This document shows, piece after piece, positions 24,194 through 26,094 of a DNA stretch of 48,357 nt. Under the pieces are notes generated by a model. The model did no database searches. It was not told the origin of the DNA and saw nothing but the letters and a program-made list of their open reading frames with translations. Position 1 is the first letter of the stretch. Each line of letters opens with the position of its first letter. The stretch is from a virus (taxonomy: Duplodnaviria > Heunggongvirae > Uroviricota > Caudoviricetes), in IMG/VR virus record IMGVR_UViG_2718217867_000003, positions 1 through 48,357 of that record. One strand, written 5' to 3'. Position numbers and translations under genes: made by a program.

Positions 24194-24445
24194 TTAGTCC
24201 TGATTTTTATCCACCCTGAGTAGTTCGCGCAGAGCAAAGGCATCCCCTTTTCTGGCAAGCTTAAACAATGCCGCTCGTAACTCGGCTTCACCTTTCGCTC
24301 TGCCCTTACGGATGGCCGCATAAAAATCTGTCATTGCTTCCCGATTTTCTTTCAGTCGGTTCAGATCAACATCCAGAACGTCAGCGATTTGTTGTGCAGT
24401 CATCCGGCACGCTGCCAGAGACTCGACTTTCGAATACGGAATCAT
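24194..24445 (-). CDS. small hypothetical protein (83 aa), possible HTH
   Basis: ATG preceded by GGGGGTGA SD; overlaps 3' end of upstream gene by 65 nt in another frame. Confidence 0.4.
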   Translation of the reverse strand: MIPYSKVESLAACRMTAQQIADVLDVDLNRLKENREAMTDFYAAIRKGRAKGEAELRAALFKLARKGDAFALRELLRVDKNQD

Positions 24446-25313
24446 TTGTCACCCCCATTGATATGCAGGGTGTCTTCTTCCTGTATTTTTCGTGAAGGAT
24501 TTTTACTGCAGCGTTGTTCCAGGTGACCTGATGGTGAATGCGTTTATGGCTGGCACCCATCAGTGAGATTTTTACGCACGACGGCGAATACATGACGGAG
24601 TAAAAACTTTTAACGTAGGTTCCGGAATCCAGATACAGCTCGGTCATTCCGCCGCTGTTTTTCTGCGTCTGTTTCTGCCCTAACTGGACAGCACCGATCG
24701 TCATAAACAATTCACCACAGCGACCGAGATTCGTGTACGTATTCACATCCTCGTTAATGCGCCCCATGAATGAGAACGGTCGATCAACCGAACAGATAAA
24801 GCTGTTCATTGCCTTGCGTTTCACCCACGAAGCATGGCCGCCATTGTCACCAAGAAAATCCCCGCCCTGCGACATAGCGATGGAAAGCGCGGGTATTGAT
24901 TCGTAATACGCAAGCATTTCAGAAAGGATCTCATCCAGTTTCCTTATCGGGAAATAGGCCTGGTCATAGTTGCGATCCACCCGAAACTGGAACTCGTGAT
25001 AATCATCATCGAGCTGAATGAAGTATTTACACCCGACCAGTTTTGCCTGGTCGAAACAGGCATTACGGGCGTAAAAAATTGAGCGGCGGTCACTAAAATT
25101 ATCGGCTTCGTCAAAACGACTAGCAATATCGGCTTTGGAAAATACCAGCACCTGTTCACCAAATTCAGCCATGTACTGATGCCGTGTCTTATCTTCATCA
25201 TCAACAACGATAAAAATTTTCCCGGTATAGCCAGCACGACGCAACGTCCGGTAAGTCAGAACTTTGTCCGGTCGCCCGTGAGTCAGAATAAAGGCGCAAA
25301 AATCATCACGCAT
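24381..25313 (-). CDS. hypothetical protein with DxD-type acidic motifs (possible nucleotide-dependent transferase fold)
   Basis: 310 aa from ATG with GGAGGAGG SD; start overlaps ParB-like gene stop (ATGCGTGA coupling); motifs FIVVDDEDK and IQLDDDY. Confidence 0.45.
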   Translation of the reverse strand: MRDDFCAFILTHGRPDKVLTYRTLRRAGYTGKIFIVVDDEDKTRHQYMAEFGEQVLVFSKADIASRFDEADNFSDRRSIFYARNACFDQAKLVGCKYFIQLDDDYHEFQFRVDRNYDQAYFPIRKLDEILSEMLAYYESIPALSIAMSQGGDFLGDNGGHASWVKRKAMNSFICSVDRPFSFMGRINEDVNTYTNLGRCGELFMTIGAVQLGQKQTQKNSGGMTELYLDSGTYVKSFYSVMYSPSCVKISLMGASHKRIHHQVTWNNAAVKILHEKYRKKTPCISMGVTNDSVFESRVSGSVPDDCTTNR

Positions 25314-26094
25314 ATTCCTCCTCCCCGCCATGCATGATCTCCACCATGCGCTGCGTCATTCGGACAAATCCATTTTCAATAGCCTGCTGATAATCAATGA
25401 TCACCAGCGCCGACTCCTCGAAAAGGCACTGAATTTCAGCGGGGGCATGAGCGTAATAGTCCGCAATTCTGCTGAAATTAAACACCGTGTGACGTTCTGC
25501 TGCACACAGGAGGAATTTCTCAATATCAGGATCAAGGGACGCCGAACGTATCCGGCTGATCAGCTCCTGAGTTTTCGTATCGTCGTACAGTTCACTGATA
25601 TCCGGTTTACCGCCTGACGGCTCATAAACAGGCGTATCAATTTTCGTCGTATACGGCTCCTCCTCATTTCCTGTACCGGGCAAAACATCCGTCAACAGTT
25701 CATCAATTTCTGCCGGGATGAAGCCTGTCAGGGAGACATCAAAATCAGCATTGATTAGGTCCGACAGCTCCATCCGCAACAGATCTTCATCCCAGCCAGC
25801 ATTCATCGGCAGGCGATTATCTGCCAGGCGGTACGCCTTTTTCTGCTCATCCGTCAGGCCAGACAGAACAATGACCGGAACAGAATCCATTTTGAGCATT
25901 TCAGCCGCCATAACACGACCGTGACCCGCAATAATTTCGCCCTTTTCGTCAATCAGCACCGGATTAGTCCAGCCGAATTGCTTAATACTTTCTACCAGTT
26001 GTGCCACCTGCTCAGTACTGTGCGTCCTGGCGTTGTGCGCATACGGTGACAATTCTTGTAATGGGCGATAGACTATCTTTAATTTCTCGCTCAT
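25306..26094 (-). CDS. ParB-like nuclease domain protein
   Basis: 262-aa ORF; ParB/Srx-type GHGR motif (IIAGHGRV) in N-terminal domain. Confidence 0.75.
   Translation of the reverse strand: MSEKLKIVYRPLQELSPYAHNARTHSTEQVAQLVESIKQFGWTNPVLIDEKGEIIAGHGRVMAAEMLKMDSVPVIVLSGLTDEQKKAYRLADNRLPMNAGWDEDLLRMELSDLINADFDVSLTGFIPAEIDELLTDVLPGTGNEEEPYTTKIDTPVYEPSGGKPDISELYDDTKTQELISRIRSASLDPDIEKFLLCAAERHTVFNFSRIADYYAHAPAEIQCLFEESALVIIDYQQAIENGFVRMTQRMVEIMHGGEEEYA

Follow-up and report, generated by a model that had tools for sequence, protein, structure and literature searches.

Which molecule receives the sugar when a phage encodes a glycosyltransferase of a family with DNA-acting members, accompanied by one dedicated partner gene and by no known acceptor-making enzyme? 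This question is raised by two overlapping minus-strand genes of the window, that is the whole stretch of 48,357 nucleotides of IMG/VR virus record IMGVR_UViG_2718217867_000003, which is a Rac-like lambdoid prophage of E. coli. The first gene encodes a ParB/Srx protein, hereafter called the partner, and the second a TET-associated glycosyltransferase (TAGT). A previous sequence-only reading of the locus had described a ParB-like protein translationally coupled to a putative transferase beside packaging genes, an arrangement often linked to DNA modification or packaging specificity. Both the coupling and the position were found as described, the small (TerS) and large (TerL) terminase subunit genes following the pair and one small open reading frame.

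At the junction of the two genes, the stop codon of the partner and the start codon of TAGT share the sequence ATGCGTGA, an 8-nucleotide overlap at positions 25306-25313, with the Shine-Dalgarno sequence GGAGGAGG just upstream. Such an overlap, mostly of 8 or 11 nucleotides, is found in 55 of 56 non-redundant lineages, a recurrence far beyond chance. In the IMG/VR set, where 237 loci were reduced to 62 lineages at less than 75% identity, the partner lies directly upstream of TAGT in all 62 viral lineages with upstream DNA, one radical SAM (S-adenosylmethionine) insertion excepted. The same position was recorded in all 79 TAGT loci collected from one genome per GTDB species, and a reverse search starting from the C-terminal domain (CTD) of the partner returned TAGT directly downstream in 77 of 78 loci, the exception being a locus that ends too early. 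Among phage records, TAGT was matched by tblastn in E. coli and Salmonella prophage-derived phages, in the Lactobacillus phages c5, LL-Ku, phiLdb, Ld17 and phi jlb1, and further in Nocardia phage NTR1, Porphyromonas phages, Vibrio phages of 191-195 kb and the archaeal virus HHTV-2. A ParB-like gene overlaps the 5' end of TAGT in c5, phi jlb1, HHTV-2, NTR1 and a Porphyromonas phage, all of which have a terminase downstream of the pair, adjacent in four of them and about 3 kb off in HHTV-2.

The hosts of the module span Proteobacteria, Firmicutes, Bacteroidota, Actinobacteria and haloarchaea, those of the GTDB loci including Bacteroidota, Clostridia, Veillonella, Desulfovibrionaceae, Planctomycetota, Verrucomicrobiota, Kiritimatiellae, Chlorobi, Saccharibacteria and one archaeon. 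Throughout this range, the neighbourhood of the pair offers little else that is constant. Clustering of 487 neighbouring proteins (201 upstream and 286 downstream, from 61 lineages) gave TerL as the sole sizeable family, found downstream in 33 of the 61 lineages, and the largest upstream cluster has three members. No recurrent third partner was detected, the Pfam censuses of the upstream genes returning ordinary replication, recombination and regulatory genes. In most lineages the pair stands immediately 5' of TerS/TerL, with other neighbours varying; in T4-like Vibrio phages it is surrounded by genes of replication, namely for primase, exonuclease and helicase, and the terminase is distant. 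The pair occurs with both cos (c5) and headful-type terminases. Taken together, these data show that the two proteins are one functional unit, an obligate two-gene module.

Regarding the enzyme, the 310-residue protein scores 118.8 bits (E 4e-34) with the Pfam family TAGT (PF20691), whose cut-off is 27.5, and covers positions 4-205 of the 205 in the model; the same family appears in the precomputed annotation of all close homologues; it is thus a glycosyltransferase and not a member of a non-enzymatic phage family, the outcome that the earlier reading had named as speaking against it. The protein shows a GT-A (Rossmann-like) fold with a DxD motif, a motif that serves in GT-A enzymes for metal and sugar-nucleotide binding, and its invariant motifs are DDD, NED and RxHH. 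The 'QLDDD' noted previously is the invariant DxD motif D102-D104, while 'VVDDED' contains the conserved D38 and D41, and the N-terminal half is the nucleotide-sugar-binding part. Residues 161-285 are strongly basic, with an isoelectric point (pI) of 9.7 and a net charge of +10 (median pI of TAGT in the family, 9.0), and about 80 conserved C-terminal residues fall beyond the PF20691 model. The start at MRDDF agrees with the Prokaryotic Genome Annotation Pipeline (PGAP) and with homologues; translation from another ATG further upstream, at 25331, would yield 316 residues. No solved-structure relative of TAGT was found by sequence, and its top structural neighbours include the protein- or peptide-glycosylating GT-A enzymes POMGNT1, SunS and glycogenin. 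No PADLOC defence model matches it.

The PHROG name attached to TAGT (phrog_842) is that of the T2/T6 beta-glucosyl-HMC-alpha-glucosyltransferase, an enzyme of hydroxymethylcytosine (HMC, hmC) modification. However, no T-even phage gave a tblastn match to TAGT at E <= 1e-5 among 50,697 phage records, which makes the T2/T6 enzyme no more than a distant relative and the name an annotation transfer; besides, no hmC pathway was found in the window, and this identity was rejected. As predicted from its sequence, the enzyme is an intact GT-A sugar-nucleotide transferase, from a family with DNA-acting members.

With an E of 8.7e-7, the partner passes the cut-off of Pfam ParB_N; it also matches phrog_620 (E 1.7e-90), and it has the GHGR motif along with the box II GxxR and box III Asn that mark ParB_N proteins of the ParB/Srx superfamily. 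N21-A-R23 aligns to box I of canonical ParB, G57-H-G-R60 to box II (GERR) and D92-N93 to box III; the nucleotide-contacting positions R23, R60 and N93 are retained, and the hydrolysis residues Q and E of canonical ParB are replaced by N21 and H58. A role as partition ParB was rejected, the TIGR00180 match reaching 38.1 bits against a cut-off of 58.45 over residues 11-94 only, with no helix-turn-helix (HTH) or dimerisation domain, and no ParA-type protein occurs among the window open reading frames (ORFs) scanned by Pfam. Residues 10-144 form a module common with phage ParB-DNA methyltransferase fusions, as seen from matches to PADLOC MTase_II (model positions 13-151 of 436, E 1.5e-38) and to phrog_498 'DNA methyltransferase' (positions 31-171 of 633, E 6e-51). 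These matches end at residue 144, and no methyltransferase domain was detected in the partner by Pfam. In the AlphaFold2 (AF2) model, the predicted architecture comprises a nucleotide-binding domain (NBD), a short helical segment, a disordered linker (residues 136-169, predicted local distance difference test score <50) and a helical CTD; neither an HTH DNA-binding domain nor a ParB C-domain was seen in the Pfam scans or in this model. The protein is acidic, with a pI of 4.5 (family median, 4.6).

In a comparison of 54 diverse partners, the best-conserved region is not ParB_N but the linker motif YTxKIxxPxYEP together with the CTD, for which there is no Pfam family and no PDB relative. Within the motif, Y148 and P155 are conserved in 100% and Y157 in 98% of the sequences. 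About 85-90% of partners carry the ParB/Srx module. What precedes TAGT in the T4-like Vibrio phages is a gene for the C-terminal region alone (139 residues, E 3.6e-56 to the family profile, positions 127-251), and a CTD-only partner of 129-156 residues recurs in five more viral lineages and at least seven internal genome loci, with a separate ParB_N-only gene a few kb away in two lineages of this kind. A scan of 1.84 billion representative proteins for the CTD yielded 1195 clusters, 1008 of them at E <= 1e-10, in which the domain is always C-terminal on ParB_N proteins of about 260 residues, or alone. No fusion to another enzyme domain was seen in the six longest among the 150 matches listed, which have only N-terminal extensions. 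A natural fusion of partner and TAGT was likewise not found, the apparent 396-residue 'fusion' at locus L292 being an ORF-calling artefact. The association of a ParB-like gene with an enzyme, as proposed earlier, is therefore an obligate and reciprocal one, but ParB/Srx is absent in about 10% of lineages and the conserved core of the partner is a previously unannotated acidic CTD.

What makes this module puzzling is the acceptor, which, going by the name of the family, should be a hydroxymethyl-pyrimidine generated by TET/JBP. Pfam scans of the ORFs of at least 100 residues from 21.8 kb to the integrase gene revealed no TET/JBP, cytosine-C5 methyltransferase, thymidylate-synthase-like enzyme or hydroxymethylase, the judgement on the head and tail genes of the first 21.8 kb resting on their position and on how RefSeq annotates a near-identical prophage. 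In the same line, neither TET/JBP (5mYOX) nor any other source of 5-hydroxymethyl-pyrimidine recurs among the 201 upstream and 286 downstream genes of the 61 lineages, although the censuses of Pfam families cover the 25 most frequent families each and could hide rare acceptor-making genes, and divergent 5mYOX enzymes may evade the Pfam model (PMC13229309). The pair-carrying phages c5 and phi jlb1, of 31-38 kb, leave little room for an acceptor-making enzyme. The acceptor cannot be a phage-made 5-hydroxymethyl-pyrimidine and, in the lack of hydroxymethyl bases, a DNA acceptor would have to be something new. The link to DNA modification made in the sequence-only reading is a tentative one, backed by an enzyme family with DNA-acting members and weakened by the lack of TET/JBP in the scanned prophage ORFs and among recurring neighbours.

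The explanation that we favour, with a probability of roughly one half, is a late, ParB-assisted DNA glycosylation system with a non-canonical acceptor. The pair would be a two-component glycosylation system made late in infection, the two proteins being translated from a common mRNA through the overlapping stop and start. The timing is suggested by a terminator-like hairpin between trkG and the partner gene and by the finding that promoter predictions for the pair are no better than chance; the pair should therefore depend on read-through by Q-antiterminated late transcription. The acidic CTD and the YTxKIxxPxYEP motif would be the element that TAGT requires, docking on its basic C-terminal half, where the acceptor would bind. 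The charge complementarity between the partner (pI 4.5) and TAGT residues 161-285 (pI 9.7) speaks for the favoured explanation, in which the two proteins would form a physical complex. Since its N-terminal module is common with methyltransferase fusions and its architecture resembles that of ParB176, a ParB-like activator considered below, the partner is proposed to bring TAGT to, and/or activate it on, replicated phage double-stranded DNA shortly before packaging. DNA would then be the presumed sugar acceptor, and the glycosylated phage DNA would gain protection in the next host, while optional neighbours (a second TAGT, an epimerase/dehydratase, a SAM methyltransferase, a radical SAM enzyme) might elaborate the sugar in some lineages.

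Several points weigh against this explanation. The pair-carrying prophage has no evident hydroxyl-bearing base and, to our knowledge, direct enzymatic glycosylation of a canonical DNA base is without precedent. No DNA-binding domain can be recognised in the partner, a very acidic protein, about one lineage in ten is entirely devoid of ParB_N, and both the C-terminal half of TAGT and the CTD of the partner are modelled with low confidence. In addition, the family member GREB1 glycosylates protein (PMC7968844), and a literature search returned no experimental work on the function of the ParB-TAGT pair or on the DNA of any pair-carrying phage. A stronger form of the favoured explanation, which we regard as less likely than not, is TET-independent DNA glycosylation at a position unused by known DNA glycosyltransferases, directed by a ParB-fold adaptor; the sugar might be attached to an exocyclic amine or oxygen on one of the canonical bases, to the backbone, or to an end of the DNA made during packaging.

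The main rival is glycosylation of protein, which we consider rather unlikely. The acceptor would be either the partner itself, through Tyr or Thr of YTxKIxxPxYEP as a glycogenin-like self-substrate, or packaging or virion proteins; the partner would act as substrate or scaffold, and ParB_N would be accessory. This would fit with the protein O-GlcNAc transferase activity of GREB1 (PMC7968844), with the structural neighbours POMGNT1, SunS and glycogenin, and with the fact that the top conserved partner residues, Tyr148, Thr149 and Tyr157, lie in a predicted disordered linker. Some 10% of lineages do without ParB_N, there is no evident acceptor on DNA, and the mycobacteriophage glycosyltransferase/O-methyltransferase clusters sit in structural genes, where capsid modification was proposed (PMC4351075). 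The radical SAM/SPASM-like neighbours also resemble peptide maturases, weakly and below all family cut-offs. Nevertheless, the ParB/Srx module carried by most partners is otherwise attached to DNA-modifying enzymes (PMC13229309), the pair of the T4-like Vibrio phages is placed among replication rather than structural genes, the C-terminal half of TAGT is strongly basic, as expected of a nucleic-acid-binding surface, and co-variation with the pair is seen for none of the structural protein families, one TerL family (33 of 61 lineages) excepted.

An anti-defence or exclusion enzyme is a more remote explanation, its target being the hydroxymethylated DNA of competing T-even-type phages, host nucleic acid or a nucleotide signal. 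Under this hypothesis the need for an acceptor-making gene disappears; the lysis-terminase region here also carries a moron (trkG), and the action of prophage glycosyltransferases on invading genomes has been suggested as a possibility (bioRxiv 10.1101/2023.12.21.572611). Such a role is at odds with the position of the pair in a late operon, behind the terminator-like hairpin and without a better-than-chance promoter of its own, with its equal conservation in the c5 group, which is catalogued among virulent dairy phages, and in T4-like phages of large size, and with the lack of any defence-model match for TAGT. Besides, we are not aware that hosts such as Lactobacillus, Haloarcula or Bacteroidota face hmC phages. 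Least probable of all is that the two genes have unrelated functions, a ParB-like packaging accessory or nuclease involved in pac or cos recognition standing next to an independent cargo glycosyltransferase. The label 'ParB-like nuclease' is indeed common on genes beside terminases, and the position 5' of TerS/TerL is constant, but these two features are outweighed by the linkage data, which largely refute the idea: co-occurrence is reciprocal (79/79 and 77/78) across phyla and domains with overlapping frames, the conserved domain of the partner is found only beside TAGT, in Vibrio phages the CTD stays next to TAGT although ParB_N is missing and the terminase is distant, and both cos (c5) and headful-type terminases accompany the pair. 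The packaging specificity evoked by the sequence-only reading has accordingly no direct support.

Expanded versions of the locus might indicate what is done to the sugar. A radical SAM enzyme of about 320 residues, in some cases with a SPASM/twitch-like end, directly follows TAGT in 10 of the 79 genome loci and is next to TAGT in 4 of the 62 viral lineages, in one case separating it from the partner; a pair with a CTD-only partner is likewise followed by this enzyme. All NCBIfam matches of these neighbours are far below cut-offs, with no known subfamily, and the enzyme may tailor the sugar or prepare the acceptor. At locus L174 (5185-10742), the partner and TAGT are accompanied by a radical SAM/SPASM protein, a second TAGT, an NAD-dependent sugar epimerase/dehydratase and a second ParB_N protein. 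At L317 (2614-6161), TAGT is fused to, or read through into, a SAM-methyltransferase domain (564-residue ORF), and a second TAGT is present. These extra genes, like those of the radical SAM loci, look like sugar-tailoring steps. T4-like phages at L238 (5489-6918, Vibrio phage pv27, 191 kb) and L324 (30930-32042) combine TAGT with a partner lacking ParB_N. Within 100 of the 191 kb of pv27, a thymidylate synthase with DHFR and a PurZ-like '2-aminooxy adenylosuccinate synthetase' annotation were noted and no hydroxymethylase was seen; the PurZ-like annotation hints at a 2-aminoadenine genome.

The window DNA from 24100 to 26300 is matched in 1618 of 5426 complete E. coli genomes, with at least 80% coverage in 866. 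In a 99.7% identical copy, the RefSeq annotation gives the order lysis genes, trkG, 'ynaK: ParB/Srx family N-terminal domain-containing protein', 'GREB1-related protein', hypothetical protein, terminase small subunit and terminase large subunit. The coordinates in the window are collected in Table 1. The small ORF that the earlier reading had described as HTH-like is present, and is a TerS-like piece of 83 residues; being confined to close enterobacterial relatives, it belongs with the packaging genes and not with the conserved pair. The C-terminal tail of TAGT, of about 25 residues (24381-24455), is present in E. coli and missing in homologues; it overlaps the start of the 83-residue ORF by 65 nucleotides, or by 23 nucleotides with the PGAP start, and the true start of this ORF is uncertain. 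The partner gene is also the source of a naming problem. In the prophage of NZ_CP058571 (locus L001, 21207-21995), which is 99.7% identical across the query region, the ParB-like gene is entered by RefSeq/PGAP as a pseudogene, 'ynaK, missing C-terminus', with only 258 nucleotides annotated, although the full 262-residue partner ORF is intact. E. coli K-12 ynaK is a remnant of the partner gene, and the pseudogene name in NZ_CP058571 seems to have been carried over from this truncated remnant.

Table 1. Positions of the pair, its domains and its neighbours (window coordinates, unless a locus is named)
Feature	Position	Strand	Remarks
Portal	20405-21811	-	
TerL	21814-23124	-	Pfam Terminase_2, Terminase_6N, Terminase_6C across TerS+TerL
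TerS	23096-24190	-	Pfam Terminase_2, Terminase_6N, Terminase_6C across TerS+TerL
83-residue TerS-like ORF	24194-24445	-	phrog_309 E 8e-23, positions 145-218 of 319
TAGT GT-A glycosyltransferase, 310 residues	24381-25313	-	
DxD motif D102-D103-D104 codons	25002-25010	-	Invariant in three alignments
Coupling junction	25306-25324	-	Shine-Dalgarno GGAGGAGG (25317-25324) and ATGCGTGA (25306-25313)
Partner, ParB/Srx protein, 262 residues	25306-26094	-	
Partner C-terminal helical domain, residues 166-255	25330-25599	-	FLxxAAxRHTxFNxxxIAxYY...SALVIIDxxxAIExGF
Partner linker motif P-Y-T-T-K-I-D-T-P-V-Y-E-P, residues 147-159	25618-25656	-	Predicted disordered stretch
Partner N-terminal module, residues 10-144	25663-26067	-	Common with phage ParB-DNA-methyltransferase fusions
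Partner ParB/Srx (ParB_N) nucleotide-binding domain, residues 1-95	25810-26094	-	
Terminator-like hairpin	26122-26145	-	10-bp stem, between trkG moron and partner gene
trkG	26232-27707	-	TrkH-family potassium transporter, 491 residues
Integrase gene	47122-48357		
Radical SAM neighbours	L181 936-1904; L171 8864-9823; L198 6826-7791; L174 7396-7995; L241 1262-2230		
Radical SAM directly after TAGT	L260, L264, L273, L279, L291, L300, L301, L303, L310, L321		

Other parts of the prophage deserve a brief mention. The trkG gene, an inserted moron of low GC (0.39), separates the lysis cassette from the ParB-like gene. On the plus strand, a 170-residue ORF (29946-30458) lies opposite to its surroundings between the lysis genes and the Q region; it falls into no Pfam or PADLOC family, its one match (DUF2441) being below threshold, and is possibly another moron. 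A very low-GC island (34047-36519, plus strand, GC 0.34-0.35) contains two ORFs opposite to the surrounding genes, one of 299 residues with a type I restriction HSDR_N / PD-(D/E)xK-like N-terminal domain and weak PADLOC matches to DrmMI and PDC-M54B, the other of 385 residues with no family match; this island is probably a defence moron. Further on (42972-45571, plus strand), recE (exonuclease VIII) is split over two frames, of 212 residues (Exonuc_VIII) and 639 residues (PDDEXK-like DUF3799), whereas it is a single 866-residue gene in strain EC2, the split here being due to a frameshift or a sequencing error.

As far as we know, phage DNA glycosylation is restricted to hydroxymethyl or hydroxy pyrimidines made by the phage itself. 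The significance of the module lies in the conservation of TAGT in thousands of small phages and prophages without a known acceptor-making enzyme, and always with a dedicated partner. Either there is a new acceptor, that is a new DNA modification with consequences for restriction, CRISPR, sequencing and phage engineering, or there is a widespread viral branch of TAGT directed at protein. If the TET-independent reading were true, a new chemical class would be added to the known DNA modifications, and its carriers would be tailed viruses, temperate as well as virulent, that infect haloarchaea and most bacterial phyla, together with prophage DNA in about one third of complete E. coli genomes. With this module, the activation of DNA-modifying enzymes by ParB-like proteins would also extend from a dioxygenase to a glycosyltransferase. 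Since the pair is common in E. coli, it is directly testable there.

TAGT glycosyltransferases and ParB-assisted DNA modification are both known, and what sets the pair apart is the lack of an acceptor-making enzyme and the obligate, unannotated partner domain. The TAGT family includes the T2/T6 enzyme that adds a second glucose to glucosyl-hmC, and its characterised phage members modify DNA post-replication (PMC13216743, PMC13390438); further relatives are the kinetoplastid base-J glucosyltransferase, which also glycosylates DNA, and GREB1 (PMC7968844). The enzyme of the window is alike in sequence membership, in its GT-A fold with DxD and in being phage-encoded, but no TET/JBP, C5-methyltransferase or hydroxymethylase partner was found with it, and it has the conserved C-terminal extension of about 80 residues outside the Pfam model. 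We know of no obligate partner protein described for the T-even or base-J enzymes. A requirement for a ParB-like protein is found in 7-deazaguanine modification, where the ParB-like NTPase DpdB is needed for DpdA to act on DNA; this system differs from the pair by its base exchange chemistry, its other enzyme fold and its location in a bacterial defence island instead of a phage late operon. In mycobacteriophage cluster O, glycosyltransferases and an O-methyltransferase lie within the structural operon, with the capsid as proposed acceptor (PMC4351075). The likeness is one of glycosyltransferases beside head or packaging genes, sometimes with methyltransferase or epimerase neighbours; those of cluster O belong to other families, have no ParB-like partner and would act on capsid protein.

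A closer parallel is offered by a subclass of phage thymine dioxygenases that requires an adjacent ParB-like protein, specifically on double-stranded DNA (PMC13229309). ParB176, the activator of 5mYOX176, consists of an NBD, a short helical piece, a disordered linker and a CTD, with no DNA-binding domain (O'Toole et al., PNAS 2026, PMC13229309), and the same paper credits Iyer et al. 2013 with the proposal that modification machinery is directed by ParB homologues. The partner shares with ParB176 this architecture and the position adjoining the enzyme, the likeness being drawn from the published description, and both systems are often near terminases and glycosyltransferases. N14, R16 and R56 of ParB176 would correspond to N21, R23 and R60 of the partner, judging from motif position. 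In contrast, the enzyme is a dioxygenase there and a glycosyltransferase without 5mYOX here, and activation by ParB was demonstrated for 5mYOX176 whereas it is a prediction for the present pair. A survey of the ParB-CTPase fold noted phage methyltransferase fusions and does not mention glycosyltransferases (Kaljevic et al., PNAS 2025, PMC12704722). With these ParB-DNA methyltransferase fusions (phrog_498, MTase_II) the pair has in common a homologous N-terminal module, a prophage-borne location and a frequent position beside the terminase; in the fusions the module is covalently joined to the methyltransferase, whereas here it is joined to a non-catalytic adaptor domain paired with a separate glycosyltransferase.

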